Notes: generated by a model from the letters alone, not told the origin. 64,000 nucleotides of DNA from Candidatus Pacearchaeota archaeon (GCA_040879765.1 JBBDJQ010000001.1:204263-268262), one strand, 5' to 3'. Numbered from the stretch's first letter, positions 24,772 to 56,962 are shown. A program made the numbers and translations.

Positions 24772-24981
24772 GCGATTAGCCATACGCTTCGGCAAATTGT
24801 GCTAAAGCGAAATTGATTTCCTTTGCGATTAGCCATACGCTTCGGCATAATGTGTCTTCGACATCATTGATTTCCTTTGCGATTAGCCATACGCTTCGGC
24901 GGGAAATAGGCGATTAGCCATACGATTCTACTTCGCTGCATATGCTTCGCCAGGAAACAGGCGATTCCACCTCCTTCGTTC
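24772..24981. repeat. Tandem cluster of modular GC-rich repeat family (locus 1)
   Basis: GCGATTAGCCATACGCTTCGGC at 24772, 24825 and 24879, partial at 24910, then related GATTC-type modules to ~24981. Confidence 0.95.
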
Positions 24982-25029
24982 ATTGTATAGTATTCTCTAA
25001 AGGATTATCCATTAGCGATTGCTGACTTT

Positions 25030-25327
25030 GTAAATCAGGTTTTTTTTAGGGGGATAATTTTAATCAGAATTAGGATCAATTAAACCCGTTTTGAAAAATT
25101 GCTATGTTTGGTCTGGATTTTTCTAAACAATTTGGAAACTGTTTTGTGTCATACAAGAATCATCTTTGAAAATAATTCACTAGTTCCATCAGAAGCCATT
25201 TCAATAACTAGATTTGAGTCATCTCTTATTGCAGCGCATAGTATCTTCTAATATGGGACATCGCGCTTGGTGTAAATACAAATCTCATATGAATCAATCT
25301 TTTTCTTTTAAGTTGCTCGTAATTCAT
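25030..25327 (-). pseudogene. Possible degraded ORF
   Basis: MNYEQLK... continues after a frameshift as KIDSYEICIYTKRDVPY*KILCAAIRDDSNLVIEMASDG... Confidence 0.3.
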
Positions 25328-25328
25328 A

Positions 25329-25748
25329 CTAAATTTTTCCCCTAACAGAATGTTTTGCCCCACATGCTAAACAATGAATAAAAGTTGTTCTGCTTTGAGA
25401 GTCTTTAGCTAATTCTGTATCGGGCTTTCCACACTCTTTACATAAAACAAATTCTTTCAAGTATTCTTCAATTTTTTGATTTATTTTTTTGCTTGGAATT
25501 CTATTATTTAATATGAATCTTTCTCCGTCTTGGTGTCCCGAGGTTGCAAGTTCTTTAAGCAAGAATTTTTTGAAATGTTCTTTGTCTCTTCTTATGTAAT
25601 CTGCTATCTGTGAGAAATTTGTTAAGATTGTTTTTTTACCTTCAAAAGACCCTTCTATGTTTTGGATTTTGAATCTAGTCTCCTCTGTGTCTTCTACTCT
25701 TTTTACTTTCTTGTAAGCTTCTTCAAGTAATTTTTCATAATTTTCCAT
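25329..25748 (-). CDS. eif2b: Translation initiation factor aIF-2 beta
   Basis: YEKLLEEAY, TILTNF, KELATSG, CKECGKPDT, CLACGA. Confidence 0.95.
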   Translation of the reverse strand: MENYEKLLEEAYKKVKRVEDTEETRFKIQNIEGSFEGKKTILTNFSQIADYIRRDKEHFKKFLLKELATSGHQDGERFILNNRIPSKKINQKIEEYLKEFVLCKECGKPDTELAKDSQSRTTFIHCLACGAKHSVRGKI

Positions 25749-25808
25749 TATCTTCTCTTGAGTTTTCGCTATATAAATCTTTATAAATCTCTTGATTTTA
25801 AATTTTGT

Positions 25809-26186
25809 ATGGAGGTTGGTGCATCCTTGGAAACTTCAGAGGCAAATAAGAAAAGAATTGATAGAGTTAATTCGAGGAGAAGAGCAGATAGAAGAATAGA
25901 GGAGATATTTGGATCAGGTTTTATAATATCAAATTATCCTGGAATAACTAATATCTATAAAACAAAAGGGATTTTTCAAAAAAAAGTTCAGGAAATTTGT
26001 AGCATAGATTATATGAATGGAGAGGTTATTTCTTATTCTTATTCTTTTGATTCAGATTTTCAAGAACAAATTCAAAAAGCATATTTCTCTCTTGCCGCAT
26101 ATTTAGATTGTGATGGAATTGGAAGATTTGGGGAAGTTGAATTGAGATGGGAATGTAAATTCCCTAATCTCGAGGCTGTTTTATGA
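25809..26186 (+). CDS. Hypothetical protein
   Basis: ATG at 25809, 21 nt after TTTATAAA. Confidence 0.6.
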   Translation: MEVGASLETSEANKKRIDRVNSRRRADRRIEEIFGSGFIISNYPGITNIYKTKGIFQKKVQEICSIDYMNGEVISYSYSFDSDFQEQIQKAYFSLAAYLDCDGIGRFGEVELRWECKFPNLEAVL

Positions 26187-26234
26187 AAGGGAGGCAATAA
26201 CTAGATTTATAAATCTGCTGATTCTTATTATTTA

Positions 26235-26786
26235 ATGATCAAGAATGTAGTTTTTGGGATTGCGATTATGATTCTTACAATTTCTGTAGGAGTTTATGGA
26301 ATTAACTTAGTTTTTGATTCTCCAGAATATAGTAATTTTTGTGGAGAATTTAGAACGCAGGAGATTATAGAGACTCAAACTCAGTGTGAATCTATTGGTG
26401 GAAAATGGACTAGTTATGAAATAAAATGTATAACTGATGAACCTTGTCCTCAGGGATATTGTGACCGGGACTACCAATGTAGGCAGGATTATGAAGAGGC
26501 ACAGGAGAATTATTACAGAAATGTTTTCTTTGTTGTAGTTCCTTTGGGAGTTGTTTTAATTGGATTGGGCGCTTTCATATTTGGACTTGAATCTGTGGGC
26601 GCAGGTTTGATGGGTGGAGGGGTTGGATTGATTCTATTTGGGGTCGGAGGATTTTGGAGATTTGCAGGAGACTGGATTAAATTTACATTATCTTTACTTG
26701 GACTTGCCGCAGTTATAGTGACAGCTTATTGGTTTAATTTAAAAAATTGGAATATTTGGAAGAAAAAAAGTAGAAAGAAAAAATAA
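26235..26786 (+). CDS. Hypothetical membrane protein with Cys-rich extracytoplasmic loop
   Basis: N-terminal TM, six-Cys loop, three C-terminal TM helices. Confidence 0.8.
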   Translation: MIKNVVFGIAIMILTISVGVYGINLVFDSPEYSNFCGEFRTQEIIETQTQCESIGGKWTSYEIKCITDEPCPQGYCDRDYQCRQDYEEAQENYYRNVFFVVVPLGVVLIGLGAFIFGLESVGAGLMGGGVGLILFGVGGFWRFAGDWIKFTLSLLGLAAVIVTAYWFNLKNWNIWKKKSRKKK

Positions 26787-26788
26787 TT

Positions 26789-27427
26789 TTATCCTAACCA
26801 CCTAATTACGTTTGGCCTTGGCTCAAAAACTGTTCCTTCTTCAAGTAATTTTTGAATTTCGGTTTCTATTTGTTCTTTTGGAATTTCGTTAATTTGAGAA
26901 ATTATTGATTCTTTTTCTATTCCACCTTGAGCTTCTGCATTTTTTATTAAATCCGTAATTTTTTCCCTAAAATCTTTTCTTACTTCTTTATTAGGTTGGG
27001 AATTTTGATTTGGGGTTTGCAGTGCATTTGCTTTTTCTAATTCCAATTTCCTTACAACAAGATATCTTGGATCTGTTTCTTTAACTGTTTCTGGAGAAAT
27101 ATAAATTTCATCATTGAAGTATCTTAAAACTCCAATAACAATCACTGTCTTTCCATGTTCAATATCTTTTATTTTTTCTATATCATCTCCAAAAACCTTG
27201 AGTTTTGTTTGCCCTGAAGCATCATCAAGAGTTATGAAAACATATTTTTTTTCCTCATCAACTACATATTTATCGACAATACTTGCAACCACATTTACTC
27301 TTACAACTCTTTTTCCGTTTAAATTCAAGTGGGTAAATTTCTCATTTTCAATTACTGGCTTTCCAGATAAAATGTCTCCAATTCTTAATTTGTATGCAAC
27401 GTTTCGTTTAAATTGTTCTTCAGGCAT
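26789..27427 (-). CDS. OB-fold ssDNA-binding protein with C-terminal winged helix (RPA2/RPA32-like)
   Basis: RVNVVASIV, TLDDASG, VIVIG.LR, FEPRPNVIRWL; adjacent to MCM. ATG at 27427 preferred, because the listed GTG lies inside the repeat. Confidence 0.8.
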   Translation of the reverse strand: MPEEQFKRNVAYKLRIGDILSGKPVIENEKFTHLNLNGKRVVRVNVVASIVDKYVVDEEKKYVFITLDDASGQTKLKVFGDDIEKIKDIEHGKTVIVIGVLRYFNDEIYISPETVKETDPRYLVVRKLELEKANALQTPNQNSQPNKEVRKDFREKITDLIKNAEAQGGIEKESIISQINEIPKEQIETEIQKLLEEGTVFEPRPNVIRWLG

Positions 27428-27428
27428 C

Positions 27429-27501
27429 GTGATTCCACTCACTTCGTTCGTTGCATACGCTTAGCCAGGAAACAGGCGATTCCGCTTCGTTGCATACGCT
27501 T
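27429..27501. repeat. Modular repeat family (locus 2)
   Basis: 70/73 nt identical to 31981-32053; 1 nt from the start codon. Confidence 0.95.
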
Positions 27502-27563
27502 TGTCCGAATTTTAGATTTTTATTTAATTTTTTCATTTTATTTTAATTTTTTTTAAATGCATT

Positions 27564-29576
27564 TTACATCTTTTGAACATAACCCGAACGTGGTTCATAA
27601 ATTATGCTGTTTTTAATTAGTTCTGTTATAGCTTCATCAATTTCGTCTTTTTCTAATTTTCCCTCTAGTTCTTTTTCTATTTCTTCTATAGGAATTAAAT
27701 CTCCGACCTTGTTTTTTAATTGATTTATAGTGTCTCTAACTATGAAAACCTTATTTCTTTTTGAAGTTGACATTCCAGAAATTCTATCTATGTCTATGGT
27801 TTTTGATTCGTAGTCATAACCAACTTGCATAAGATAATATTTCATTATATCTATGGATTTTTTTGCATCCTCTTTTGTGACGATGCTATCTAAGCGTACT
27901 TTTGCAGAAGCTTCAGACATTCTAATCAAGGCTTCTAATTGTCTTGCAGAGATTGGGATTGGTCTTAGAGAGGCATCTGAAGATACCTGTGAATTTCTCA
28001 AATCTATGTAGAATTTTTCTATTTCTTGAATTGCTTCCTCACTTAATTTTGGAACTATTTTCTGTTTTGAATAAGCAACATATTTTCTGAACATTTCTCT
28101 TGGGATTATCATCGCTTTTCCTTCTTTTCTGTGTTCGTCTAAAATGTGCCGTGCAATCAAGGTGTCTTTCTCTCTGTTTGGAATATCTCTTAATGTAAAT
28201 ATAACATCAAAACGATTTATTAAAGTTGGAGGCAAATCAATTTGCTGCGAGATTGATTGAAAAGGGTCGAATCTACCGAACTTTGGATTCGCTGCCGCTA
28301 AAACAGAGGTTTCGGCTTTTAGGGTCGCTTGAACATTCGCCTTACTTATTGTTATGGTTTGCTGTTCCATTGCCTCATGCATTGAGGATCGATCCTGAGG
28401 GTCCATTTTTTCTAATTCATCTATGCAAACTAAACCTTTATTTGCAAGAACCATTGCTCCTGCTTCCAAAGACCAACCTCTCAGGTATTCGTCTCTTACA
28501 ACTGTTGCTGTTAGTCCTGCTCCAGACGCAGATTTACCAACAACATATCTTCCTTTTGGAGAAATCTCAGCCATGAAATTAAGTGTGACGGATTTTGCAA
28601 CCCCCGGGTCTCCTATAAGGAGTATGTGTATGTCTCCCCGAGATCTTTGCCCATCTATGTGGATTTTTTTTACACCTCCAAAAAGTTGAAGGATCAGGGA
28701 TCTTTTTATTTCCTCGTGGCCCCAAACTGATGGAACAATGCTTTTTGCAAGCTTGTCAAAAATTTCTGGGTCTTTTGAAAGTTCAAGTATTTCTTTTTCA
28801 TCTTCTTCACTTATGTCTAATTCTTCAAAGGTTTCTTCAAGAGCTATAAGATTGTTAACTTCTATAGCTAATTCAAACCTTGTTGACAATCCTCCAGAGG
28901 CTAATGGAACTGGAACTTCTTTCAAAACTCCGATTACTTTTACTCTACTACCTGGAGTTGTCTTTTCCTCCATTCTTGGCTCAACTAAATCTTCTTTTAC
29001 AAAAACATTTAGTCTTTTTGGTTGCTCTCCTCCAGAAAGAGATTCTGGAGATTCTTCAATTACTAATCTTTGAGTATCAACCATCTTTCTACTTACTTGC
29101 CTGAATCCACCTTTTCTTCCACATGAACACCTTGTAGGTTCTCTGAATTTTTTTTCTAGTTGCATTACTCCCTGAATTGTCCCACAGCTTGGACATTCAA
29201 AAGAAGCTTGAATAACCTGGGGTCTTACATCACTTGCTTGGCGAATAATCCCCTCAACAACAACCATCTCATTTAGATTTCTAGAACGAATATTCCTTAT
29301 CTTTATTTGCAAACTAGCAGGCATGTTGAACAATCTTACTCTGACGTTCTTTAACATTGGGGAATCTTCTATTGCCAATTCTATTAAGCTAAGAACTTCT
29401 TCGGGATTTGATAGTGTTTCTTCAGAAAGTTTACTTGAAAACTCTGAAAGCTTCATAAAGTCTATGAAAATAACGTTGTTTCCTTGCTTTATTGAGTCTG
29501 CTAACTCTCTTTTATGGAAATCAAAAAAATTCTTCGCCTCTATTATTAATGCTTCTTTTGTCTTCGCCTCTGCCAT
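27564..29576 (-). CDS. mcm: Replicative MCM helicase
   Basis: CPSC...CSC zinc finger, GDPGVAKS, VCIDELEKM, AAANPKFGRF, ARQLEALIR; no intein. Confidence 0.97.
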   Translation of the reverse strand: MAEAKTKEALIIEAKNFFDFHKRELADSIKQGNNVIFIDFMKLSEFSSKLSEETLSNPEEVLSLIELAIEDSPMLKNVRVRLFNMPASLQIKIRNIRSRNLNEMVVVEGIIRQASDVRPQVIQASFECPSCGTIQGVMQLEKKFREPTRCSCGRKGGFRQVSRKMVDTQRLVIEESPESLSGGEQPKRLNVFVKEDLVEPRMEEKTTPGSRVKVIGVLKEVPVPLASGGLSTRFELAIEVNNLIALEETFEELDISEEDEKEILELSKDPEIFDKLAKSIVPSVWGHEEIKRSLILQLFGGVKKIHIDGQRSRGDIHILLIGDPGVAKSVTLNFMAEISPKGRYVVGKSASGAGLTATVVRDEYLRGWSLEAGAMVLANKGLVCIDELEKMDPQDRSSMHEAMEQQTITISKANVQATLKAETSVLAAANPKFGRFDPFQSISQQIDLPPTLINRFDVIFTLRDIPNREKDTLIARHILDEHRKEGKAMIIPREMFRKYVAYSKQKIVPKLSEEAIQEIEKFYIDLRNSQVSSDASLRPIPISARQLEALIRMSEASAKVRLDSIVTKEDAKKSIDIMKYYLMQVGYDYESKTIDIDRISGMSTSKRNKVFIVRDTINQLKNKVGDLIPIEEIEKELEGKLEKDEIDEAITELIKNSIIYEPRSGYVQKM

Positions 29577-29664
29577 ATATGAAATTTAGAGGCGATTTGT
29601 TTTTATAGTTTGTTGTTAAAAATTAAGCATAATCAAGAATAATGGTTATTTCTTAAGAGTAAAA

Positions 29665-30222
29665 TTAGTAATTCTTCAAAGCAGCTTTAACATTTTTAAG
29701 AAGTTGGGTCATACTTTCTTCCAATTGCTGTTTGTTCTTTGTTCCAGTACAAACGAGCTTTCCATTAGAGAAAAGAAGAAATGTGGCATTTGGTTCGATT
29801 AATTTATAAACTAAACCAGGGAATTGTTCTGGTTCATATTCGGTATTTTCCATTTCTAAAGCTAAGAAATTCAAATTAAGTTTGAGGTCTATGGTTCCTG
29901 AAGCAACAATATTTTGAACAGTTACTTTGGGTTTTATAGTAATTTTAATATTTATTTTTTTAAGTTGTTTTATCACTTCTTGAATTACTTTGTTAACTTG
30001 AGTAATTGATTTTGTTCCAGTGCAAACAAGGTTTCCTGAGGAGAATACCAAGACTGCTGATTTTGGTTCTTTGACCCTTAAAACCAAACCAGGGAATGTT
30101 TTTGGGTTATATTCAGTGTTTGGTTGATTTTTTGCAAGCTTAACTAATGGAATAGGTTTTTCTAAAGAAGTTGTTGCAACAATATTTTGAATTTGATAGT
30201 TGCTTTTAGATTTTGCTGCCAT
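29665..30222 (-). CDS. tbp: TATA-box binding protein
   Basis: Two repeats NIVA...EYxPExFPGLV...LxFSxGxLVCTG. Confidence 0.97.
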   Translation of the reverse strand: MAAKSKSNYQIQNIVATTSLEKPIPLVKLAKNQPNTEYNPKTFPGLVLRVKEPKSAVLVFSSGNLVCTGTKSITQVNKVIQEVIKQLKKINIKITIKPKVTVQNIVASGTIDLKLNLNFLALEMENTEYEPEQFPGLVYKLIEPNATFLLFSNGKLVCTGTKNKQQLEESMTQLLKNVKAALKNY

Positions 30223-30267
30223 TTTATTCTATTTATAAAAGAAAGCTATTTATAAAGGTTTTTGGAA

Positions 30268-31980
30268 TCAACCATATACATAATTTCTTTTTTGATTTGC
30301 GAAATCTTTTTTGAGTTCATCCAATGTATTAACTTCTGAAATGTGTTTATCTGGTCTTAAGGTTATGAATCTTGGAAATCTTAAAGCCCAACCAGAGTTA
30401 TAATTTGGAGATTTTTGAATTTGCTGATATGTTACTGCAACTACTATTTTTGGTTTTATTTCTACAGACTTTCCTTTTTCCTTTGTTATGTAAGGTTTCA
30501 ATAAATTGGTTAGAGATTCAAATGTTATATCTTCTTCTCCTGCTTCAGATTTTTCCTTTATCCCTATTCCAACTTTTCCGACTTCTAAATATTTCTCTCC
30601 ATGTTTACAAGAGATAATAAAACTTGACATCCAGCCTCCTCTTTTTCCAGCACCATATTCTGCACCAGTGATAACTAAATCTAAATCCCTTTCTTCTGGT
30701 TTCATCTTAACCATGTTCCCAACTCTTCTTCCAGGCCTGTATGGAGATTCAAGATTTTTGAACATAATCCCTTCTTGTGAATTTTTCAAAGCTTCTTTAT
30801 AGAATTTTTCAGCTTTATTTTCATCATCAGTAATTAATTGTTTGGAGGAAATTATTTTGTAGGGTTTATCTGTGACTATTTTCCTAAGTAACTTTGTTCT
30901 TTTTTTGAAAGGTTCATTTAACATAGATTTCCCATTGTGGTAGAGTATATCGAAAATATTTAACTCAACTGGAAGTTCATCTTGTAGTTTTTGAATATCG
31001 TATTTCCTCCTTATTCTTTGACTTATTTTTTGGAAATCAGTGTACTCTTTTGTTTTTTTATCATAGCCTACTGCTTCAGAATCTAAGATGAATGACTTTC
31101 CTTTGACATATTTTTTTATGTAATTAACAACTTCTGGAAATTGATTTGTTACGTTTTCTAAACTTCTTGTAAATACAATTAATTTGTCATCTTGCTTATG
31201 GATCAACATTCTGAAGCCATCATATTTATATTCTAGGGCACAAGGGCATCCAACTTCCTTAAACCCTTCTTTTATTGATGTGACTTTTTTTGGAAGCATA
31301 GCTTTTATTGGCTTTCCAATTTTAAGATGGACTTTTTCTAAATCTTTTAATTTCCCTTTTTTTGCAATTCCAAAAACCTCAGAGATGTCATTTGCTTTAT
31401 CTATTGTTTCTTGTATTTTTAGTGAACATTCTTTATCTCCTTTGAAAAACGCAGAACATAGGGCTTCACGAATTGTACTTTCTTGAACCCCAATTCTTAA
31501 ATCTCCAATTAAAGTCCTTACTAAATATTGTGAACCTATTGGGGAAGCAGAGGTCAAAAGTTCTGTGATTAATGCAAGTTTTTTATTAATGGATCCTTTA
31601 CCTTCTAACTCTGGAAGTTTCCTTAAATTACTCAAAACTTTTTCTGTTGTCAATGCAATTTCATGAAGTGTGGATTGTTTCTTTTTCTTTTTTAATTTCT
31701 CGGCAACTTGCCCTAAATCTCCAAGATTTTTCCACTCCTTGACTACTTCATTTTTATCTGTCCCAACTGCAAGAGCAATAGATTTTATGGCTAATTGATT
31801 GCTTATCCCGATTCTTCTTTGATCGCTTTCAGGATAAATATCTCCCATAAGAAGGTACATGACTTCTTTGTCTAACTCATGGACTTGAGTTAAAAATTTA
31901 GAAAGAATTTTTATTTTTTCAAGTCTTTTTGTCGTTGAAGCTAAGGCTTCATAAGTTTCAGCGAGTTTCTTGTAAAGCAT
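30268..31980 (-). CDS. lig: ATP-dependent DNA ligase
   Basis: EYKYDGFR, ILDSEAV, EGIMFK, YRPGRR, ALRFPRF. Confidence 0.97.
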   Translation of the reverse strand: MLYKKLAETYEALASTTKRLEKIKILSKFLTQVHELDKEVMYLLMGDIYPESDQRRIGISNQLAIKSIALAVGTDKNEVVKEWKNLGDLGQVAEKLKKKKKQSTLHEIALTTEKVLSNLRKLPELEGKGSINKKLALITELLTSASPIGSQYLVRTLIGDLRIGVQESTIREALCSAFFKGDKECSLKIQETIDKANDISEVFGIAKKGKLKDLEKVHLKIGKPIKAMLPKKVTSIKEGFKEVGCPCALEYKYDGFRMLIHKQDDKLIVFTRSLENVTNQFPEVVNYIKKYVKGKSFILDSEAVGYDKKTKEYTDFQKISQRIRRKYDIQKLQDELPVELNIFDILYHNGKSMLNEPFKKRTKLLRKIVTDKPYKIISSKQLITDDENKAEKFYKEALKNSQEGIMFKNLESPYRPGRRVGNMVKMKPEERDLDLVITGAEYGAGKRGGWMSSFIISCKHGEKYLEVGKVGIGIKEKSEAGEEDITFESLTNLLKPYITKEKGKSVEIKPKIVVAVTYQQIQKSPNYNSGWALRFPRFITLRPDKHISEVNTLDELKKDFANQKRNYVYG

Positions 31981-32058
31981 GTGATTCCACTCACTTCGTT
32001 CGTTGCATATGCTTAGCCAGGAAATAGGCGATTCCGCTTCGTTGCATATGCTTAGCCA
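31981..32058. repeat. Modular repeat family (locus 3)
   Basis: Abuts the lig ATG directly; two internal GATTCC...GCATATGCTTAGCC sub-units. Confidence 0.95.
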
Positions 32059-32121
32059 TTTTAATTTTTCGAAATAATTTTCCTCTTTAGAAAATCAAGA
32101 AATGGAAGTTTTTAAGTTTGA

Positions 32122-32694: not shown

Positions 32695-32733
32695 GTGCGA
32701 TTAGTCATACGCTTCGACAATTTGTGCTGAAGC
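32695..32733. repeat. Modular repeat family (locus 4)
   Basis: GTGCGATTAGTCATACGCTTCGACAATTTGTGCTGAAGC matches the unit plus spacer at 24772-24808; abuts the rpl15e ATG. Confidence 0.85.
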
Positions 32734-32892
32734 AATGTTTATTATTTATCAAAGAAAAAAGTGGTTTTTAAATCTTAGGATTTTGAACCCCAAAAATTTG
32801 AACTGGATCTCCACGCAAACTAAAGAAAATTTTGTAGGTTTTAAAGTTTCTTAAACAAACTTTTTTAAATTGATTATTGTATTTGATTCTGA

Positions 32893-32967
32893 GAGCCTGT
32901 AGCTCAGCCTGGTTAGAGCACTACTCTGATAAGGTAGGGGTCCAAGGTTCAAATCCTTGCAGGCTCA
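32893..32967 (+). tRNA. tRNA-Ile(GAT)
   Basis: GAGCCTG/CAGGCTC acceptor, CTACT-CTGATAA-GGTAG, T-loop TTCAAAT. Confidence 0.96.
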
Positions 32968-32977
32968 TTTATATTAA

Positions 32978-34418: not shown

Positions 34419-34448
34419 GTTTTTATAACTCTTTAATTTGTTTTTCTA

Positions 34449-36649: not shown

Positions 36650-36660
36650 TCCTGACGTCG

Positions 36661-36745
36661 GCTCGCTTCTGTTGAATGGGGAGAAGAATGCAAAATTTTT
36701 TGTTTATTAGATATAAATTTTATTAATGGGCGAGCGGAGCGAGTG
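36661..36745. repeat. Imperfect inverted repeat with CGAGCGGAGCGAG arm
   Basis: GCTCGCTTC (36661-36669) can pair with GGAGCGAGT (36736-36744) around an AT-rich loop. Confidence 0.45.
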
Positions 36746-36813
36746 ATATTTGAATTTTAAAATGCATAATAATTCATGATAAAGTATTTAAGTGGGGATT
36801 TTTTTGAGTTTTT

Positions 36814-39206: not shown

Positions 39207-39236
39207 GCGATTCCGCTTCGCTGCATACGCTTCGCC
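39207..39236. repeat. Modular repeat family (locus 5)
   Basis: GCGATTCCGCTTCGCTGCATACGCTTCGCC between the divergent secG and valS TATA boxes. Confidence 0.88.
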
Positions 39237-39279
39237 AAAACACTGAAAACTTTATAATAATCTTTTAGCTTGAATAAAG

Positions 39280-49350: not shown

Positions 49351-49382
49351 ATTTGTTAATTTTCAATGTAAGTTGTTTGTAT

Positions 49383-49718
49383 TTAAAAAATGTTTTGTGG
49401 ATTTGGTTCAACATATGGAAGATTTTCTCCATTTTCACAGGAGATTGCAGTGTAGTGTTTTATCCATTTGGACTCCAGCCCACTTCTAACATCCTTCATT
49501 GTTTCTAGAGCTTTTTCATCTAAATTTTTTAATTTAAAAGACATTTTAATTTCTGGATTAAAATGTTTAATGGCTTGCATTCTTTTATGGATCCTTGATT
49601 GTGAAAGCTTTTCTATTTCTGCATAATCAAATGCTTGAATGACTCTGTTTTGTAAAACCAAATCAATAATTTCATCATCAAAACCTTTTTCAATATAGAA
49701 CATAACCTCTGCTTTCAT
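49383..49718 (-). CDS. Hypothetical protein
   Basis: 1 nt after the previous stop in the run. Confidence 0.65.
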   Translation of the reverse strand: MKAEVMFYIEKGFDDEIIDLVLQNRVIQAFDYAEIEKLSQSRIHKRMQAIKHFNPEIKMSFKLKNLDEKALETMKDVRSGLESKWIKHYTAISCENGENLPYVEPNPQNIF

Positions 49719-49719
49719 T

Positions 49720-49974
49720 TTAGTTTTTCAAAAATCCATATAATTCTTGGAAGTGGGTTGGACAAATTCCATGAGAGATTTTTTTTGAATATGTGCTTAT
49801 GAGCAAGTCGTACATTTCCTTATCTTCCCCCTTGTTAAACCAATAATCCCCATTTTCTGTTGGAACCTTTATGCCTCCGATTTCTTCACTAGGTTTACAG
49901 ACTGAAATAATCGAGTTTTCTTCTTCTGCTCTTTCAAGCATTTTTTCTAAAGTGTTTTTAATTTCAGGTTCCAT
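49720..49974 (-). CDS. Small protein with SHGICP motif
   Basis: ISVC...GDYW...ISHGICPTHFQELY. Confidence 0.7.
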   Translation of the reverse strand: MEPEIKNTLEKMLERAEEENSIISVCKPSEEIGGIKVPTENGDYWFNKGEDKEMYDLLISTYSKKISHGICPTHFQELYGFLKN

Positions 49975-49981
49975 TCTATTT

Positions 49982-50356
49982 TTATCCTTCCAAATATTTT
50001 TTTATTCTTCTTCCAGCTGTAGGGTCTGGTCTTGTAAAATAATCTTTTGCTCCTAATTCTAATGCTCTTTCTCCAATTTCATCATTACCAGAATAGAACA
50101 TGAAAAAATCTATTTCATCTAGTTGTTTGGCATAATTTTTTAAGACTTCATATTCACTTATCTTAGGCAAATCTCTATCTAAAATTACTGCCCTAATATT
50201 CTTTGAATTTTCTAATCTATTACTCAATTTTTCTCCATTTTCGAACATTTCAAATTCATACCCTTCTTTTAGAGTTCTAGCTAATAAAACCTTATCTAAG
50301 CTTCTGTTCATGAGGTCGGAACTTGCTATTAATATAGAATTTCTTTTGGATGTCAT
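49982..50356 (-). CDS. Stand-alone, degenerate response-regulator receiver domain
   Basis: ILIASSD, GYEF, AVILDRDLP, RALELGAKDYFTRP; SD AGGAGGT. Confidence 0.8.
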   Translation of the reverse strand: MTSKRNSILIASSDLMNRSLDKVLLARTLKEGYEFEMFENGEKLSNRLENSKNIRAVILDRDLPKISEYEVLKNYAKQLDEIDFFMFYSGNDEIGERALELGAKDYFTRPDPTAGRRIKKYLEG

Positions 50357-50532
50357 TTTATACCTCCTTCCGTAACAACAACTACCTGATCATCGCTACT
50401 ATATAGATTATGAATTTTTCTTTCATATGGCTCTATAATTCCTGAAGAGAGGGTTGAAACTATGTTTCTGTTTGGCAATTTAGTTTGATTAACTGACTTC
50501 TCCATTTCACTTTCAGAGTATTCTCTTTCCAT
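50353..50532 (-). CDS. Small hypothetical protein (59 aa, absent from the ORF track)
   Basis: MEREYSESEM...VVVTEGGIK; ATGA overlap with the receiver gene; TATA-like TTTTTAAA upstream. Confidence 0.5.
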   Translation of the reverse strand: MEREYSESEMEKSVNQTKLPNRNIVSTLSSGIIEPYERKIHNLYSSDDQVVVVTEGGIK

Positions 50533-50596
50533 AAAATTTCAAGTTGATTTTCTTTTAAAAATCTTTCTATTTGTTATTACTAAAGAGTTATAAGAA

Positions 50597-52897
50597 TTAG
50601 CCCAGATAACTATTTCCCTGTGTTGGGATTGCTGCCTTTGAAGATTTAAGGAAATTCTCTTCCATCTTTTTATAAACTTCTATGGTTGGCTTACTTACAC
50701 TTGGTCTCACTTTGTTGAGTGCTTCTTCGAAATGTTTCTTCTTAACTTCCTTAGCATCTATAGATTCTCTTAATGAAAGCATTCCTGCTTCTCTTGTCAA
50801 AGATTCTAAATCAGCGCCTGTGTAGCCTGCAGTTTTTTTAGCTAAATCTTTTATTTTGACATCTTTTGCCAAAGGCATATTTCTTGTGTGGATGTTTAGA
50901 ATTGATTCTCTTCCTGGTTCCTCTGGTGAGCTCACTAAAAGAATTTTATCAAATCTTCCAGGTCTTAATAATGCTGGATCTAACATGTCTGGACGATTTG
51001 TTGCCCCTACAATTAAAATATCTTTCAAATCTTCTAAGCCATCCATTTCAGCCAACAATTGATTTAGAACTCTTTCAGTTACCTTTGATCCTCCCGAATC
51101 TCCCAACCCTCTCCTTCCTGCTAGGGAATCAATCTCATCAAAGAAAACAACACATGGGGCTACTTGTCTGGCTCTTTCGAAAATTTTTCTAACTCCTTCT
51201 TCAGATTTTCCAACCCACATACTCAATAAGCTTGGACCTTTAACCTGTATAAAATTTGCTCCTGATTCTTTTGCAACAGCCTTTGCCAAAAGAGTTTTTC
51301 CTGTTCCTGGAGGTCCGTAAAGTAAAATTCCTCTTGAAGGTCTTATCCCAATTCTCTTAAAGCTTTCAGCATATTTCATTGGCCATTCAACTGCTTCTTT
51401 TAATTCTTGTTTTACTTCTCCTAATCCTCCAACTTGTTCCCAAGTTATATTTGGGATTTCAACTAAAACTTCTCTCATAGCTGAAGGCCTTACAGTTCTC
51501 AGAGCATTCATGAAATCATCATGTTTAACAATTAATTTTTCTAAAATGTTTTGGGGAATTTTTTCTGCACCATCAAGTTTCATCTTGGGCAAGTATTTTC
51601 TTAGGACAGACATTGCTGCTTCTTTTGATAGTGATTCTAAATCCGCACCAACAAATCCATGAGTTGTTGCGGCAAGCTCATCAAGATTGACATCTTTATC
51701 TAGAGGCATACCTCTTGTGTGGATTTTTAGAATTGATAATCTGCCTTCTTTATCTGGAACATTTATTGCAATTTCTCTATCAAATCTTCCCGGCCTTCTT
51801 AATGCAGGGTCAAGAGCATTCACTCTATTAGTCGCTCCTATAACTATTACCTTTCCTCTTGATTTCAATCCATCCATCATTGTAAGAATTTGACTTACCA
51901 CCCGTCTTTCAACCTCTCCCATGGTCTCTTCCCTCTTTGAAGCAATTGCATCTATTTCATCTATGAAAATAATGGTTGGTGCAGTTTTTTCTGCCTCTTC
52001 GAAAATATCTCTAATCTTTTTTTCAGATTCTCCATAGAATTTGGACATTATCTCTGGGCCATTAAGTAATATAAAATTTGCATCCGATTCATTTGCAACA
52101 GCCTTTGCCAAAAGAGTTTTTCCTGTTCCTGGAGTTCCATGCAATAAAACTCCCTTAGGAGCTTCTATTCCTAACTTGTCAAATATTTCTGGATGTTTCA
52201 TTGGTAGCTCAACCATCTCCCTTATTTTCTTTATCTCCTCAGTTAAACCTCCAATGTCTTCATAATTTATTTCTGGAATTTTCTCATCTGTTAATTCAAC
52301 TGCTTTTGGATTTAGAATCACTTCTGTGTTTTCAGTTATGATTACAGGTTGGTTTGGATTTGAATTTACAACCATGAATTTTATTTGGGTGATATTTCCC
52401 CCAAGGTTTCCGAATCCCATTTCATTAAAGAAATCCCCAAAAATATCATTTAATCCTCCTAACTCATCAGACATCAAATCTTTTCTTCTTTGAACTCCTC
52501 CAAGGACAACTATGTCCCCTTTTAAGATGCTTCTTCCAAGTAAGCCCCTTTTTAAAGATTCAGGATCTCCTTGAACCATAACTCCTTTTTGGGCCGGGGC
52601 AATCATGACCTTTTTAGCCTCTTTAACATCAACTTTAGAAATTGAAATTATGTCTCCGATGCCTGCCTTTGCATTTCTTCTTATTATGCCATCTATTCTT
52701 ATGATTCCCTCTCCAACGTCTGCAGGATAGGCTCTGTCGGCTATTGCGACAGTTTCTCGATTACCTTTTACCATTATTACATCTCCTCTCCTAATCTCCA
52801 AATCTCTCATTGCTTCAGAATCAATTCTTGCAATCCCTTTATACGCATCATCTTGTAATGCTTCTGCAATTTTTAGCTGAACTGCTTTCTTAACCAT
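50597..52897 (-). CDS. cdc48: CDC48/VCP AAA+ ATPase
   Basis: Two AAA modules ([16 protein letters not shown]), IDEID/FDEID, RRPGRFD. Confidence 0.97.
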
Positions 52898-53265
52898 TAT
52901 CTGTGCCTCCTCTTTGGGGTTTCTAGCTCTCCGAAATTTAGGGAAACCCTTCTAAAATCTTCAAAACATAACCTTACCATATCGTCCATCATTTGTTTTT
53001 GAGTATTCATAAAAGAAACAATTTCTTTAGGTATAGAGACGGCGTAGCTATTTCCTACAAGTCTCATTTTAACTGAGAATTCTTTGTTCTTCAAATTTAT
53101 AAATTTATTGTAATTATACTCATCAATTGGATGAATTATCGTTTCTCCACATTTTGCGCAATTCATTGCTCTTATCACAAATCCATTTTTATGGCTTTCC
53201 GACTTTTGCATCTCTTTATTGCAACTTTCACATAAAATTTTATTGTCGAAAATGTCTTTTACCAT
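52897..53265 (-). CDS. Zinc-ribbon plus AbrB/MazE-type DNA-binding protein
   Basis: CESC...CAKC; KMRLVGNSYAVSIPKEI; TAATG overlap with cdc48; ATG at 53265 preferred. Confidence 0.75.
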   Translation of the reverse strand: MVKDIFDNKILCESCNKEMQKSESHKNGFVIRAMNCAKCGETIIHPIDEYNYNKFINLKNKEFSVKMRLVGNSYAVSIPKEIVSFMNTQKQMMDDMVRLCFEDFRRVSLNFGELETPKRRHR

Positions 53266-53323
53266 TTGGTATATACTTGTAATGTATACTTGATGTATAT
53301 CTTTATTTATAAAGGTTATGGTG

Positions 53324-53680
53324 TTAAGACAATTCAAAAACACTTTCAAGATAAACTCTTGCTTTTTTATTTTGATTTTCTTCAAAATTTGGCAAGCCAT
53401 ATTTTGTCAGAATTTTTTCTAAGTATTCAGTTTGATTTTCAGATAATCTTATTGAGAAAGGCCTTTTTAATTCCAAAGCACCTTTTTTAGACACTTTAAA
53501 TTCGTTAAATTTATATGCTTCTATCCTTCCTGAAACTTGATTTCTTATTGCTACCACATTTCTACTGACGATTCTACTTTTGTCTTGGAAAGTTCCAAGG
53601 AAAAACCCGGGCATTTTACCCGACCAATTAGCTAAAAAGTATATTTTTCCGTAAGCAAGTTCTTCTAGTTCTCTACCCAT
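53324..53680 (-). CDS. Hypothetical protein
   Basis: 118 aa ORF with a TATA-like element upstream. Confidence 0.55.
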   Translation of the reverse strand: MGRELEELAYGKIYFLANWSGKMPGFFLGTFQDKSRIVSRNVVAIRNQVSGRIEAYKFNEFKVSKKGALELKRPFSIRLSENQTEYLEKILTKYGLPNFEENQNKKARVYLESVFELS

Positions 53681-53747
53681 ACGAAATAATTAGATATCTT
53701 TTTTAATAATTAATATGTTTTTGAATATATTCCTTTAAATATAATTT

Positions 53748-54071
53748 TTATCTGTATCTTGACATAAATTTAATCCTTTCAAGCTCGGCATCTGGAGAGT
53801 AGTCGTCATTAAATGCTCCACCCAAATCCCTCCAATAATTATTGAGCTCTTCATATGTAACCTCGCATTCTTTAAAGTCTAAATCATCTTCAGTTGGGAA
53901 ATCAGTTCTGATGGATAAATATTTTTCATGAGTTCTTATTCTTGTTTCTGAATCCAAATTCCTTTCATAAGCCTCTCCTATTAGTTTAACAAGAACATCT
54001 TCATCTGTGGATCCATCAGGATGGAATAATGCTTCTTCAGAACTTGGCAAGTTTACTATGGTTTTTGTCAT
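53748..54071 (-). CDS. Hypothetical acidic protein
   Basis: 107 aa D/E-rich ORF. Confidence 0.65.
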   Translation of the reverse strand: MTKTIVNLPSSEEALFHPDGSTDEDVLVKLIGEAYERNLDSETRIRTHEKYLSIRTDFPTEDDLDFKECEVTYEELNNYWRDLGGAFNDDYSPDAELERIKFMSRYR

Positions 54072-54240
54072 TTTATTTTTTTGTTTTGCTTGTTTAAATT
54101 GATTTATGTTCTATAATTTACTAATCTTTTCTATAAGCAAGTCTTCCAAGTTGCCATCCATGGAAGAGTCATATTTTTGTTTTTAAGGATTATTAATTTT
54201 AAACCAATCATCTTAAAAATAGATTTGGCTTTTCTCCTGA

Positions 54241-54963
54241 ATGAGTATAAAAAAAGATGCGAAAAAATCAAATAAGTTGTTTGAAGAAAAATTTAATAAA
54301 GAATTAGGATTGAAAAAACAAATTTACCCAGAAAAGAAACCTTCATTTCAACCAAAAAAAATCTGGGATAAATTTTGGTTTATAATCTGGAAAGACGACT
54401 CTCTAAAAGGCTGGATTCTTTCAATTATTTTTATTTTTATTTTAATCAAGTTTGTTTTTTTCCCTGGTTTGAGTCTTATTACTGGAACTTCTTTACCTTT
54501 GGCAATTGTAGAATCTTGCAGTATGTATCATGAAGGGAATTTGTTTTCTGATTCTGATGCTTGGTATGAAAGACATGAAGAAAAATATGGGGATTTTGAG
54601 ATAAACCAAGAAAACTTTTCTAAATTTCCTTTTCAAGATGGTTTCAACAAAGGAGATATTCTTTTTATCGTTGGAACTAAATCAAGTAATTTGGAAGTTG
54701 GAGATGTGATTGTATTCAGTGCAAATTCTAGAAATCCCGTCATCCATAGAATAATAAATATTGAGGAAGGTGAAGATGGAAGAATTATCTCAACTATTGG
54801 GGATAATAATGGGGTGCAATTGTCTTCTGAGAAAAAAATTTCTGAAGACAAAATTCTTGGAAGGGCTGTTTTAAAGATTGCACCTTATTTTGGCTGGGTT
54901 AAATTGATTTTTTTTGAACCTTTGAGGCATATTTCTGAAAGAGGTTTGTGTTATGAGAACTGA
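54241..54963 (+). CDS. Signal peptidase I (S26, archaeal/ER-type Ser-His)
   Basis: TM followed by VESCSMY, GD.IVF, PVIHRII, GDNN. Confidence 0.85.
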   Translation: MSIKKDAKKSNKLFEEKFNKELGLKKQIYPEKKPSFQPKKIWDKFWFIIWKDDSLKGWILSIIFIFILIKFVFFPGLSLITGTSLPLAIVESCSMYHEGNLFSDSDAWYERHEEKYGDFEINQENFSKFPFQDGFNKGDILFIVGTKSSNLEVGDVIVFSANSRNPVIHRIINIEEGEDGRIISTIGDNNGVQLSSEKKISEDKILGRAVLKIAPYFGWVKLIFFEPLRHISERGLCYEN

Positions 54964-55038
54964 TTTTTGCTATTATGGAATGGCATTTCAATAAAGAAAC
55001 CTTTTTAAAATCAAGTTTTTTAAAACCCAAATAGAAAC

Positions 55039-55353
55039 ATGGAATTCTGTCCTAAGTGTGGTGCGGTTTTGATAAAAAAAACTAAGAATTTTGGATGTCC
55101 AAGATGTAATTATTCTACCAAGGACAAGGTTAAATTAAGTTCTAGTGAGAAGGTCACTGAATCAAAAGAAGTTGCTGTGGTTAAAGGCAAGGAAATTAAT
55201 ACTGAACCAGTCATAGCAGAGAATTGTAAAAAGTGTGGAAATAACCAAGCTTACTTCTGGACTATTCAAACTCGTGCAGGTGATGAGGCAGAAACCAAAT
55301 TCTTTAGATGCACAGATACTAAGTGTGGATATACTTGGAGAGAGTATAGGTAA
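55039..55353 (+). CDS. tfs: Transcription factor S (TFS/RpoM)
   Basis: FCPKCG, CPRC, CKKCG, QTRAGDEAET, C...CGYTWREY. Confidence 0.95.
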   Translation: MEFCPKCGAVLIKKTKNFGCPRCNYSTKDKVKLSSSEKVTESKEVAVVKGKEINTEPVIAENCKKCGNNQAYFWTIQTRAGDEAETKFFRCTDTKCGYTWREYR

Positions 55354-55387
55354 ACTTTAAAACTTCTTTTTTAATTAATATTTAATT

Positions 55388-55540
55388 GGCTCCGTAGCTC
55401 AGCCTGGTTAGAGCACTGGACTTTTATGCCCAACTTTCTTTAAAGAAAGTTCGGCGCTCAAAGAATAAAGCAAATTGCTTTGCTCAAGAGTGAATCGCAA
55501 AGAGATCCAGGTGTCGGGGGTTCAAATCCCCTCGGGGCCA
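55388..55540 (+). tRNA. tRNA-Lys(TTT) with 78-nt intron at 37/38 (55427-55504)
   Basis: GGCTCCG/CGGGGCC acceptor, CTGGA/TCCAG anticodon stem; bulge-helix-bulge with CTTT:AAAG central helix and two 3-nt bulges. Confidence 0.93.
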
Positions 55541-55541
55541 T

Positions 55542-55781
55542 TTATTTTTTCTTAGAAATATTTTTTAGGTTCTTTGCAAGGTTAGCTCTCTTTTCTAAAA
55601 GTTTTGTAACCTTTATTTTCTTTTTACCTAATCTGGAAGGATTTGTTATTGTGTCTCCTGGTTTAGAAGCTATTATTTTATTTAGCAGAGAAATAGGTAT
55701 TTTTTTATCCAAAGAAATTCCAAGTTGCTTATGTAATGTACCTTTTTTCATCCGGATTTTTTGAATCCATTTTATCACCAT
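55542..55781 (-). CDS. Small very basic protein
   Basis: KWIQK..KKGTLHKQLG..KKIP...RANLAKNL; TATA-like element upstream. Confidence 0.7.
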   Translation of the reverse strand: MVIKWIQKIRMKKGTLHKQLGISLDKKIPISLLNKIIASKPGDTITNPSRLGKKKIKVTKLLEKRANLAKNLKNISKKK

Positions 55782-55868
55782 ATTTTAATATATAAAAAAT
55801 AATTAATAAATTTAACGAAAATAATAACAAATAACAAAATCCTTTTCTATGCTTGTCGAGGTCGTGAG

Positions 55869-56135
55869 TTATCTGACTAGTTTTTGAATCTCTTCAATAG
55901 AATCTGCAACTTCTTTACCTTTCTTGGTTAGCTGTATCACTTTTATCCGACCCCTTTTTTCGAAATTTACTAACCCAAGTTCTTCCAACGTTTGCAGAAT
56001 TTTCACTGCGTGGCTGTAAGTGCAGTCTACTTCTTTAGCCAAAATACTTCCATACCTCATTCTAGAATTCCTTTTCAAAGATACCAACATCATTGCCGGC
56101 TTTCTCCTGAAAAAGAGGTCGAAGTTTTCTTTCAT
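55869..56135 (-). CDS. Winged-helix transcriptional regulator
   Basis: SILAKEVDCTYSHAVKILQTLEELGLVNFEKRGR..LTKKG. Confidence 0.88.
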   Translation of the reverse strand: MKENFDLFFRRKPAMMLVSLKRNSRMRYGSILAKEVDCTYSHAVKILQTLEELGLVNFEKRGRIKVIQLTKKGKEVADSIEEIQKLVR

Positions 56136-56296
56136 TTTATTTTATCTATATACTCTAATGAATATATCGAAGTATAATCCTTTTAAAGGTTTTGTCTAGT
56201 AATTTTGGAGTACTGATTGGGGGTTATTTTATGTAATTTTTATTTTTATTTTTGTAAAAGAGTAAAATTCTTAAGGTAAATTGGATTTGTTAAATT

Positions 56297-56962
56297 ATGA
56301 AAAAGAAAAAGAAAAGCGATTCCACTTCATCTCATACGCTTCGCCATGGAACGACTGGAATGACTAGGATTCTTGCAGTTGGAGATTTGCATGGAGACCG
56401 AAGACTAATAGATGGGCTGGCAAAAAAAGCCAAAGATGAAAATGTTGACTTGGTAATTTTAGCTGGCGATTTGACTTTTGCTGAAACTTCAACAGAAAAT
56501 ATAGTTGGACCTTTTCTCAAGGCAGGAAAAGAAGTTTTGATAATTCCTGGAAACCATGAATCGCCTGCAACCACAGAATTTTTGTCAAAGAAATATTTAG
56601 ACACGACACATCTTCATGGAAATCATTTTATTAAAGGTAATCTTGGAATTTTTGGAGCTGGTGGAGCAGATATAGGGGTTTATCAGATTGATGATTCTGA
56701 AATTCTTAAACTGTTGGGAAAAAGCCACGACAAGGTTAAATCTCTTGATAAAAAATTAATGGTGACCCACATACATCCTGCAGGAACAAATTCGGAATTT
56801 TCTGGTTTTAAGGGCTCCAAGGCTGTGAGAAAAGCGATAGATAAATTTCAGCCAGATGTTGCAGTTTTTGCACACATTCATGAGGCTGCTGGAACTGAGG
56901 ACAAAATAGGAAAGACAAGGGCAATAAATGTCAGCAGGAAGGGGAAGGTTTTTGAGGTTTGA
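56297..56962 (+). CDS. Calcineurin-like metallophosphoesterase with repeat-encoded N-terminal extension
   Basis: GDLHG, AGD, GNHE, TH, HIHE. TTCTTAAG 21 nt before ATG 56297; alternative ATG at 56360. Confidence 0.9.
   Translation: MKKKKKSDSTSSHTLRHGTTGMTRILAVGDLHGDRRLIDGLAKKAKDENVDLVILAGDLTFAETSTENIVGPFLKAGKEVLIIPGNHESPATTEFLSKKYLDTTHLHGNHFIKGNLGIFGAGGADIGVYQIDDSEILKLLGKSHDKVKSLDKKLMVTHIHPAGTNSEFSGFKGSKAVRKAIDKFQPDVAVFAHIHEAAGTEDKIGKTRAINVSRKGKVFEV
56316..56345. repeat. Modular repeat family (locus 6, in-frame within CDS)
   Basis: GCGATTCCACTTCATCTCATACGCTTCGCC; translated as SDSTSSHTLRH. Confidence 0.8.

Follow-up and report, generated by a model that had tools for sequence, protein, structure and literature searches.

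In this work we have analysed a stretch of 64 kb (the whole of it is referred to as the window) from a DPANN archaeon of the Nanoarchaeota / Pace-Woesearchaeales type, in which 12 short GC-rich modules form six loci, all of them on the plus strand. The copies in the window are insertions, and their core is shared and conserved across genomes, the family not being private to the genome of the window. Since this core recurs in related genomes, even in frame in a kinase gene, it looks like an undescribed small mobile element. Our best reading is that of a non-autonomous mini mobile element, RPE/REP-like in behaviour and a member of neither family, and we give about an even chance to the six loci being copies of an insertion element that is short, modular, GC-rich, and not palindromic, and that was probably moved in trans.

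The module counts are far above chance. Module A (GCGATTAGCCATACGCTTCGGC) has five matches in the window with three or fewer mismatches, all five on the plus strand, and module B (GCGATTCCGCTTCGCTGCATACGCTTCGCC) has three at the same threshold, with none expected for either. The common core CATAYGCTT was found 12 times against 0.7 expected, 11 of them on the plus strand inside the loci; the remaining one, at 60691 on the minus strand, was discarded as a chance match with no element context. The linker AGGAAAYAG appears at 24952, 27467, and 32019. A repeat search and TRF agree on the layout of 12 modules in six loci, and both recover the tandem array at 24770-24900, in which a 54-nt unit is repeated 2.5 times. 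The element core measures 30–32 nt and has two direct GCGAAGCG repeats spaced 14 nt apart; together with the tail, the units reach 40–54 nt, and the largest mobile unit seen is a dimer of 78 nt. Exact GCGAAGC, highlighted on the minus strand by the first-pass annotation, does occur there four times, each within an element. The window copies are degenerate (three to five mismatches) and of several variants (A, B, and B'), as expected for decaying selfish copies. Identical copies are present in the independent Logan assembly of SRR27977663 (L121), whose contig end falls inside the 24772 array, at about 24881. The six-locus repeat family proposed in that annotation is thus confirmed by counts and by a second assembly.

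The first locus (24772..24990, plus strand) is a composite array that begins with three A modules (24772, 24825, and 24879), each followed by a tail of ~31 nt with the end ATTGATTTCCTTT, and continues with a linker (GGGAAATAG), an A/B hybrid module (24910-24951), another linker (AGGAAACAG, 24952-24960), and a degenerate B module (24961 to ~24990). It is located downstream of eIF2-beta and 3 nt upstream of the TATA-like CCTTATAAAA of a minus-strand Zn-ribbon gene (24527-24721). Two 78-nt dimers, 96% identical to each other and with the similarity ending at the dimer ends, come next. The one at 27429..27506 (plus strand) consists of a long B' (27429-27466), the linker AGGAAACAG, and a B module (27476-27505), and is 1 nt off the ATG (27427) of a minus-strand RPA-like OB-fold gene; the MCM and RPA genes, which are 136 nt apart in the window, overlap with no spacer in the relative L124. 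The other dimer (31981..32058, plus strand; B' 31981-32018, linker AGGAAATAG, B 32028-32057) abuts directly the ATG (31980) of a minus-strand ATP-dependent DNA ligase. A single A-type module (GCGATTAGTCATACGCTTCGAC) with the tail AATTTGTGCTGAAGCAATG spans 32697..32740 on the plus strand (its beginning had been placed at 32695, which we correct here), 2 nt off the ATG (32694) of the minus-strand gene for ribosomal protein L15e. At 39207..39246 (plus strand) there is a single consensus B module (39207-39236), identical to copies in other genomes, with a 10-nt tail (AAAACACTGA); it separates two conserved divergent promoters, that of Sec61-beta (minus strand, ATG 39167) and that of ValRS (plus strand, ATG 39280). 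Lastly, a single B module with five mismatches (56316..56345, plus strand) lies 14 nt upstream of the canonical ATG (56360) of a plus-strand metallophosphoesterase; it is in frame with an upstream ATG (56297) and would read SDSTSSHTLRH, the frame being that found in Bud32 (see below). Overall, copies are 0–2 nt from the start codons of RPA, DNA ligase, and L15e, and the types of placement include the space between divergent promoters, the region upstream of a TATA box, and the interval between TATA box and ATG. The genes adjoining them make up no coherent regulon.

That these copies are insertions follows from the comparison with three syntenic relatives (L122, L124, and L126, DNA ligase protein ~75% identical), in which the orthologous sites are devoid of any module. 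Against L124, the 39207 copy stands out as 40 nt cleanly inserted in a promoter region that is otherwise alignable, and the 32697 copy corresponds to an insertion of ~42 nt between the TATA region and the L15e ATG with respect to all three. The filled and empty orthologous sites, whose comparison the first-pass annotation had suggested, also bear out its remark that target-site duplications are lacking, as none was found in the 39207 comparison with L124 and none is visible by inspection of the other loci. Copies would have entered AT-rich gene-start regions after the split from the closest sampled relatives, and the 78-nt dimer may be able to move as one unit.

The element itself encodes nothing; the enzyme that probably moves it in trans would be encoded at another place in the genome. 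In agreement with the earlier statement that no transposase was seen, none was detected among ~20 of the ~73 window ORFs scanned with Pfam (picked by position or by an HUH-motif filter), nor any Y1 transposase or RAYT, the two ORFs with an HUH-like motif being included in the scan. All six loci have the same orientation, which by chance alone has p ~0.03, and a strand-specific mechanism (single-strand DNA, HUH/Y1-type) may be the cause. The polarity described before is present in the window, but 'regardless of the neighbouring gene's strand' was an overstatement: at five of the six loci a minus-strand gene start is found 0–50 nt to the left. The two directions, that of the elements and that of the minus-strand genes beside them, are confounded. 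GC skew in the 64-kb window tracks gene strand, and sub-motifs outside the elements have little strand bias. No fixed target sequence is evident; CAT or GAT is found within 0–2 nt on the left flank at six of 10 independent sites, four of these being start codons of the other strand, and the rest are unrelated.

Folding of the element, in both strands and as RNA or DNA, was no better than that of shuffled sequence (z from -1.6 to +0.6), and the lack of a fold-supported hairpin is awkward for an HUH/Y1 mechanism. There is a 4-bp stem (GCGA-N7-TCGC), with one compensatory variant (GTGA...TCAC) in B', and the GCGAAGC mini-hairpins on the minus strand; neither was significant in folding, where nearest-neighbour parameters may undervalue such mini-hairpins. 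The repeat search returned no palindrome, no inverted pairing of copies, and no inverted-repeat arms within the loci, and there is no terminal inverted repeat, the ends GCGATTCC... and ...GCTTCGCC not being complementary. With Rfam, only tRNAs in the window pass the gathering threshold, and at E up to 10 nothing was obtained on the element or on a tRNA-linked copy. Neither was any viral or plasmid match to the element found, and we could not match the family to anything described. A CRISPR origin was discarded, the sole array being that of 2.5 units of 54 nt with mutually related 'spacers', and a weak CRISPR-DR match (E = 2.3) falls outside the repeats.

The same 32-mer was retrieved from 12 other contigs (GC 24–37%), 11 of them from a metagenome scan, coming from six JGI sample datasets, and one (L138) via a Bud32 homologue. 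In these Pacearchaeota-like archaeal genomes the core is almost unchanged; some copies are in frame within a Bud32 kinase loop, others touch a start codon, and others adjoin relic tRNA 3' ends. The density is about one per 10–20 kb in loci that were selected for having a copy. IMG/VR, plasmids, and phages gave no copy that could act as a vector. In the Bud32 loop, 33 nt are read as CDSASLHTLRP, at one fixed codon position in six contigs, and also in nine protein clusters, with the insert being 99% identical, the flanks 73%, and the flanking third codon positions 58%. Insert-bearing proteins are interspersed among insert-free ones, and removal of the insert leaves a loop four residues shorter than in any insert-free homologue. 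Other genomes have further families of GC-rich modules in the same loop and in intergenic DNA, the other loop inserts being homologous to the intergenic modules. Insertion into coding sequence thus occurs, and the wider set would comprise GC-rich mini-modules of Pacearchaeota-like genomes whose landing sites are intergenic DNA and, with the frame kept, a surface loop of Bud32 that tolerates them.

This conservation also counts against a mobile element, since drift would be expected of selfish relics and the Bud32 copies keep 99% identity. Identity of this kind at the same codon position across deep divergence requires either homing-like site specificity or selection. Under the mobile-element reading, the copies of different genomes would be nearly identical owing to recent or recurrent spread, and would not be old neutral ones. 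A different explanation, which we consider rather unlikely, is that the 32-mer is a functional cis-acting DNA signal under purifying selection across Pacearchaeota, spread by the insertions and bound by a conserved protein (e.g., a transcription factor operator, an uptake/recognition sequence, or a polar signal for replication or segregation). The contrast between insert and flanks, which includes one genome of 27% GC, speaks for such a signal. So do the paired direct repeats of the core, the single orientation at six of six loci, and the promoter location of window copies, which separate divergent TATA boxes, precede a TATA box by 3 nt, or occupy the TATA–ATG interval. However, the degenerate and varied window copies, the absence of a regulon, the one conserved location inside a coding loop, the low density elsewhere (even in loci chosen for having a copy), and the same promoters without any copy in close syntenic relatives all argue against it. 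More broadly, we hold only as a tentative and doubtful proposal that the 32-mer is a lineage-wide nucleic-acid signal actively kept identical across Pacearchaeota, more than selfish DNA. A homing-like enzyme acting in trans might rewrite the same word at the Bud32 loop, start-codon junctions, and tRNA 3' ends, or selection might act for a strand-polar recognition function; either route, if true, would amount to a kind of sequence-specific insertion or recognition system for which archaea have no described example.

In four contigs (L127, L129, L135, and L136) the element lies directly against a relic tRNA 3' end (T-loop to discriminator, 16–22 nt), with three serial relics in L127. The element start GCGATTCC is T-loop-like (compare TTCGATTCC) and makes a palindrome with the adjacent relic, and the flanks UCGGACUG and CGGUUCGA can pair, bracketing the element. 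These copies lie after complete tRNAs and the T-arm is not restored. As a separate observation, the window's own tRNA-Lys intron has the 3' end GAATCGC, resembling the element. The relics are the classic footprint of integration at tRNA genes, and together with the T-loop-like start and the serial relics they could mean that the core is a fragment from such sites, either the end of an integrative element that has tRNA genes (T-loop and 3' end) as its target or filler DNA copied from a locus of that kind, with the dispersed copies derived secondarily from this source. We find this quite improbable, because only housekeeping genes, and no integrase or mobile genes, neighbour these tRNAs, the inserted segment has just 70–90 nt, the window and Bud32 copies have no tRNA-like duplication, and no tRNA with a matching 3' end was found among the sequences searched.

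Action at the RNA level was judged very improbable. Here the element would be an intron or processing element of the bulge-helix-bulge (BHB) type, a substrate of the archaeal splicing endonuclease, or else a 5' leader transplanted to mRNAs that are normally leaderless, enabling their translation or regulation. In four independent cases the copy abuts a start codon, always with the same sense orientation (RPA, ligase, L15e, and L128/L132), DPANN genomes reportedly have many non-canonical introns and broad-specificity endonucleases, and the pairing flanks and the tRNA-Lys intron end are also in its favour. Nevertheless, no BHB motif can be drawn at the boundaries, and neither a fold above shuffled sequence nor an Rfam match was obtained. 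The element is sense in Bud32 and antisense-equivalent in the 5' leader cases, which one RNA function cannot cover, two window copies precede the TATA box and would probably be left out of the gene's transcript, and splicing out the Bud32 insert would leave the shorter loop described above. An assembly, chimera, or adapter artefact, to which a short GC-rich sequence recurrent in many assemblies and the Logan contig break might point, is effectively refuted by the same copies in two assemblies, the presence of the element with point variants in JGI, ENA, NCBI, and Logan data, the fixed in-frame position in Bud32 of six contigs, and clean boundaries against an empty orthologous site.

Coming back to the mobile element, the genomes of DPANN archaea are very small and compact, and the usual description has them almost devoid of mobile DNA. 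A module family that inserts at promoters and start codons, as well as in frame in an essential kinase of tRNA modification, would give these organisms a new way of varying both genome and proteins. The 99% against 73% contrast in Bud32 is hard to explain by drift and points to an unrecognised insertion or recognition machinery, which phylogenetic profiling could uncover. In practical terms, assemblies break at the modules, as seen in the Logan contig, and gene callers are misled, an internal ATG giving false N-termini (e.g., MQRSGIA...).

Among known systems, DNA uptake sequences (USS/DUS) are likewise fixed words conserved across related species, both intergenic and in frame in tolerant parts of proteins, with upkeep by molecular drive and not by coding need. 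Their cores have 9–12 nt, occur about once per kb in both orientations, and arise by point mutation, not by insertion; to our knowledge, no uptake system is known in this host. Yeast mitochondrial GC clusters, unrelated in sequence and host, are also GC-rich modules of 30–50 nt in a very AT-rich compact genome, with several families, mobile without an enzyme of their own, and adjoining gene starts and other elements, although they are mostly palindromic and often have short AG/TAG-type target duplications. REP/REPIN-RAYT and the IS200/IS605-derived PATE resemble our element in being short, non-autonomous, specific in strand orientation, and free of target-site duplications, but the imperfect palindrome, GTAG-type head, and inverted pairs are missing here, and no fixed target tetranucleotide is evident. 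Besides, REPs are extragenic while this element is also found in coding sequence, and here the 12 modules are all direct on the plus strand, with no RAYT among the scanned window ORFs. In a preprint on 256 Nanobdellota proteomes, K07491 (RAYT/IS200-type Y1) is reported as the sole transposase KO to give strict hits. Archaeal MITEs, listed for Sulfolobus, Halobacterium, and Haloquadratum and for no DPANN in one review (PMC10969869), are similarly small non-autonomous interspersed insertions with filled and empty sites between relatives. This element differs from them in lacking terminal inverted repeats and target-site duplication, in being far shorter than is typical, and in being GC-rich within an AT-rich genome. 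RPEs (Rickettsia palindromic elements) are short non-coding repeats that occupy intergenic DNA but also protein genes, in which they keep the frame and are translated into loops that the protein tolerates (PMC10969869). They share with our element a reduced, symbiont-type genome, several families, intergenic and in-frame copies, and no encoded enzyme, but they are ~150 bp long and palindromic, as opposed to a core of 30–32 nt without a significant fold, have no sequence similarity to it, and do not come from an archaeal host. Of the REP/RPE-like character first proposed, then, the RPE-like in-frame insertion into genes holds and the REP-like palindromes and inverted pairs do not. Translated insertion of the RPE type is found in Bud32 and would be possible in the window for the 56316 copy, from the ATG at 56297, and it would be an archaeal parallel to the selfish DNA in Rickettsia genes.

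The window is archaeal, with genes for eIF2-beta, RPA, MCM, TBP, an ATP-dependent DNA ligase, L15e, NAC, Sec61-beta and ValRS; the nearest DNA ligases are ~75% identical and labelled Nanoarchaeota wherever sources name them, and related Bud32 proteins are labelled Pacearchaeota. The family of short GC-rich repeats that the first-pass annotation placed at six loci is real, with counts far above those of shuffled sequence. Module A (GCGATTAGCCATACGCTTCGGC) has five matches at ≤3 mismatches, module B (GCGATTCCGCTTCGCTGCATACGCTTCGCC) three and the gapped pattern GCGATT-N(3-22)-CATAYGCTT eight, each against 0 expected from dinucleotide-preserving shuffles. The core CATAYGCTT occurs 12 times (0.7 expected), 11 of these on the plus strand within the six loci, and the sole minus-strand match, at 60691, has no element context. 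Direct sequence inspection, repeat finding and TRF gave a layout of 12 modules in total, all on the plus strand. The array at 24772-24990 is composite, with three A units (period 54, each carrying a 31-nt tail) ahead of an A/B hybrid and a degenerate B. Loci 27429 and 31981 each hold a 78-nt dimer of structure B'-AGGAAAYAG-B, and the two dimers share 96% identity. The other three loci have one module each: an A unit plus tail at 32697, a consensus B at 39207 and a diverged B at 56316. The linker AGGAAAYAG, noted earlier as joining the modules, is present in both dimers, whose likeness ends before the AT-rich flanks, so that the dimer brings no promoter along. The Logan assembly of SRR27977663 has the same copies (one contig ends within the 24772-24990 array), and the repeats are therefore no artefact of one assembly.

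Other features were seen in the same stretch. Between the array and the eIF2-beta stop codon lie ~340 nt of non-coding DNA (24991-25328) with no noteworthy ORF and a weak CRISPR-DR (E = 2.3) as sole Rfam match; the orthologous spacer of the syntenic relative L124 has 61 nt in total. A 227-nt direct repeat with 71% identity (51233-51459 and 52055-52281) is internal to a 766-aa ORF (50597-52897), and by coordinate arithmetic the other Logan contig end falls near its first copy. The window starts with a very long ORF (302-6691, up to 2129 aa) containing GC-rich Gly/Ser-type stretches, and a Fic/DOC-domain protein is encoded at 12481-13284.

All six repeat loci occupy short AT-rich spacers at gene starts. 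A minus-strand start (Zn-ribbon, RPA, ligase, L15e or Sec61-beta) lies 0-50 nt to the left of five of them, and two face plus-strand starts (ValRS and metallophosphoesterase). The 56316 copy shares its frame with an ATG further upstream (56297); the start of metallophosphoesterase homologues corresponds to M22 in the longest ORF, so that the canonical ATG is at 56360 and this copy lies 14 nt ahead of it. The single orientation claimed earlier holds at six of six loci (chance p ~0.03), but its independence of gene strand is weakly founded, given the minus-strand start beside five of them, and the GC skew of the window follows gene strand and so cannot show replication direction. The element itself holds an ATG (GTATGCA), which opens small ORFs (e.g., MAKHMQRSGIAYFLAKHMQRTK) at 27429-27506 and 31981-32058, stopping just before the real start codons; in the metagenome contig L132 (393-755) it shares the frame of the gene and creates a false N-terminus, MQRSGIA-MTEGIV…. 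The frame of the small ORFs inside the repeats varies with respect to the genes, and they were judged incidental.

Filled and empty orthologous sites were compared, as had been proposed, and no copy was found at the syntenic loci of three relatives (L122, L124 and L126). The best case for insertion is 39207, where the divergent Sec61-beta/ValRS promoter region matches L124 base for base outside one 40-nt block (a 30-mer plus AAAACACTGA) that is present in the window only; in agreement with the earlier reading, no target duplication is seen against this empty site. In the relatives a TATA-like box precedes the L15e ATG by ~20 nt, and the window has ~42 extra nt abutting that ATG. MCM and RPA overlap in L124 and are 136 nt apart in the window, where a 78-nt dimer stands 1 nt from the ATG of RPA. 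Conservation extends to the Zn-ribbon promoter (CCTTATAAAA...GGAGG...ATG), 3 nt upstream of which the repeat array starts. The copies at the window loci are thus insertions. The archaeal TATA box lies ~26 nt ahead of the transcription start, and this spacing would turn three copies into a new 5' leader and leave two upstream of promoters.

The most likely reading, which we would put at about an even chance, is that of a mini mobile element of the non-autonomous kind. The data indicate insertion, rearrangement of modules, a 78-nt dimer copied as a unit and decay of local copies, which together make up the behaviour of a selfish repeat. As noted at first, no transposase was found among the ~20 window ORFs scanned with Pfam, including the two candidates of a HUH-motif screen, a Fic protein and an ORF without a family match. 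RAYT/IS200-type Y1 transposases insert single strands in one orientation and without duplications; as a candidate mobilising enzyme, one of this type would fit the shared orientation. The one lead to this enzyme is a preprint that gives them as the sole transposase KO with strict matches in Nanobdellota proteomes. No viral or plasmid vector appeared in IMG/VR pattern scans or in blastn against PLSDB and phage genomes.

The finding is larger than first noted. The 30-32-nt core (the 32-mer) is common to 12 other contigs, and several sister module families exist. One scan of JGI metagenomes with the strict B pattern yielded 11 contigs from six sample datasets (24-37% GC), and the twelfth (L138, 27% GC) was found via a Bud32 homologue; all contain (T/C)GCGATTCC(G/A)CTTCG(C/T)TGCATA(C/T)GCTT(C/T)GCCC. 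A loose gapped pattern run against genome contigs gave only single chance matches, in unrelated bacteria. The 32-mer has three contexts in these contigs: a coding loop of Bud32 (the Kae1-associated kinase), a start codon and the region downstream of a tRNA gene. At the start codon (L128 and L132, tRNA-binding-domain gene) its relative orientation is that seen at RPA, ligase and L15e. The Bud32 insert is always in frame between HGDLTTSNM(I/M) and KI(F/Y)(F/M)IDFG, and reads CDSASLHTLRP in L130, L131, L133, L134, L137 and L138. The 33-nt insert is 99% identical among copies, against 73% for flanking coding DNA and 58% for flanking third codon positions. It is found in nine of the best 120 Bud32 clusters, and the seven placed in a short, weakly resolved tree made without the loop are dispersed among insert-free sequences in at least four groups. 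Simple selfish decay fails to explain near-identity between genomes and recurrence at one Bud32 codon position; these need recurrent site-specific insertion or selection, which keeps three other readings alive. That the 32-mer is a functional signal is the best of them, although unlikely when set beside the mobile-element reading.

A derivation from tRNA integration is more doubtful still. It has on its side the copies downstream of complete tRNA genes in L127, L129, L135 and L136, with the order tRNA, covarying hairpin (CUGAAAG loop), spacer, element and a relic of the tRNA from T-loop to 3' end. No integrase was found near these copies, and an integrated mobile element was rejected there, the neighbours being housekeeping genes. 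Further observations concern tRNA genes of the clade. The tRNA-Lys(UUU) of the window (55388-55540) has a 78-79-nt intron at 37/38 whose first ~45 nt share 91% identity with segment 11-56 of L127; there, partial copies of a tRNA-Gln 3' end stand three in series, with the intron-like segment after the third and the 32-mer after the first, which suggests that intron-like and repeat-like modules are swapped around tRNA genes in this clade. On the minus strand of L136 (13500-13600), the first 13 nt of tRNA-Ser(CGA) are duplicated ahead of the gene, the copy being followed by a GC-rich hairpin (GAGGGGGCAACCCCC), and partial duplicates thus occur on both sides of the gene.

The Bud32 loop (HGDLTTSNMIL to KIFFIDFG) is hypervariable in Pacearchaeota, from ~5 to ~60 residues among homologues P0121-P0240. 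In two other genomes with different GC-rich modules in the loop, the insert of L139 (1208-1348) has a ~105-nt alignment with an intergenic segment of L140, and the 5' part of the L140 insert (10376-10555) matches two intergenic segments of its own locus in reverse orientation. GC-rich intergenic islands number 13 in 20 kb of L140 and are essentially only tRNAs in L122, L124 and L126. Since long Bud32 inserts recur between genes, the family of the window is one of several GC-rich mini-module families in these genomes, and none of the others has so conserved a core. Loop peptide motifs also recur (KRGDNxF, AGGRELASEVAS and SDSEPI), matching GC-rich DNA modules that occur between genes as well, and two intergenic GC-rich pieces at 36650-36760 of the window (…GAATGCAAAA… and AATGGGCGAGCGGAGCGAGTGA) resemble L140 family motifs, with no significance in blastn. 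The presence of copies both within and outside coding DNA, and of several sister families, are further marks of the selfish repeat envisaged for a mini mobile element.

An action at the RNA level is, by a little, the least probable of these three readings; the need for insertion or selection keeps it alive. A known RNA was rejected, as Rfam, a match to which would have cost the family its novelty, has none on the element at gathering or E-value threshold. REP-like hairpins were rejected, as the folding of either strand, RNA or DNA, is no better than that of shuffled sequence, and the loci have no inverted arms or terminal inverted repeats. The heptamer GCGAAGC, a specially stable DNA mini-hairpin first observed on the minus strand, has four exact copies there, all inside elements; the folding parameters used here may miss its stability, and the element may therefore still adopt a single-strand structure. 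A literature search found no paper with the exact element sequence, and nothing on DPANN repeats, MITEs or introns describing such elements; a review of prokaryotic MITEs (PMC10969869) lists archaeal ones only in Sulfolobus, Halobacterium, Haloquadratum, Desulfurococcus and "several other archaeal genomes", without mention of a DPANN lineage. Structural membership tests for the RPE, REP and mitochondrial GC-cluster families all failed. The earlier proposal of a REP/RPE-like non-autonomous element is partly supported: unlike REP in structure, the element of the window is like the selfish short interspersed repeats of RPE, REP and mitochondrial GC-cluster type in its behaviour.
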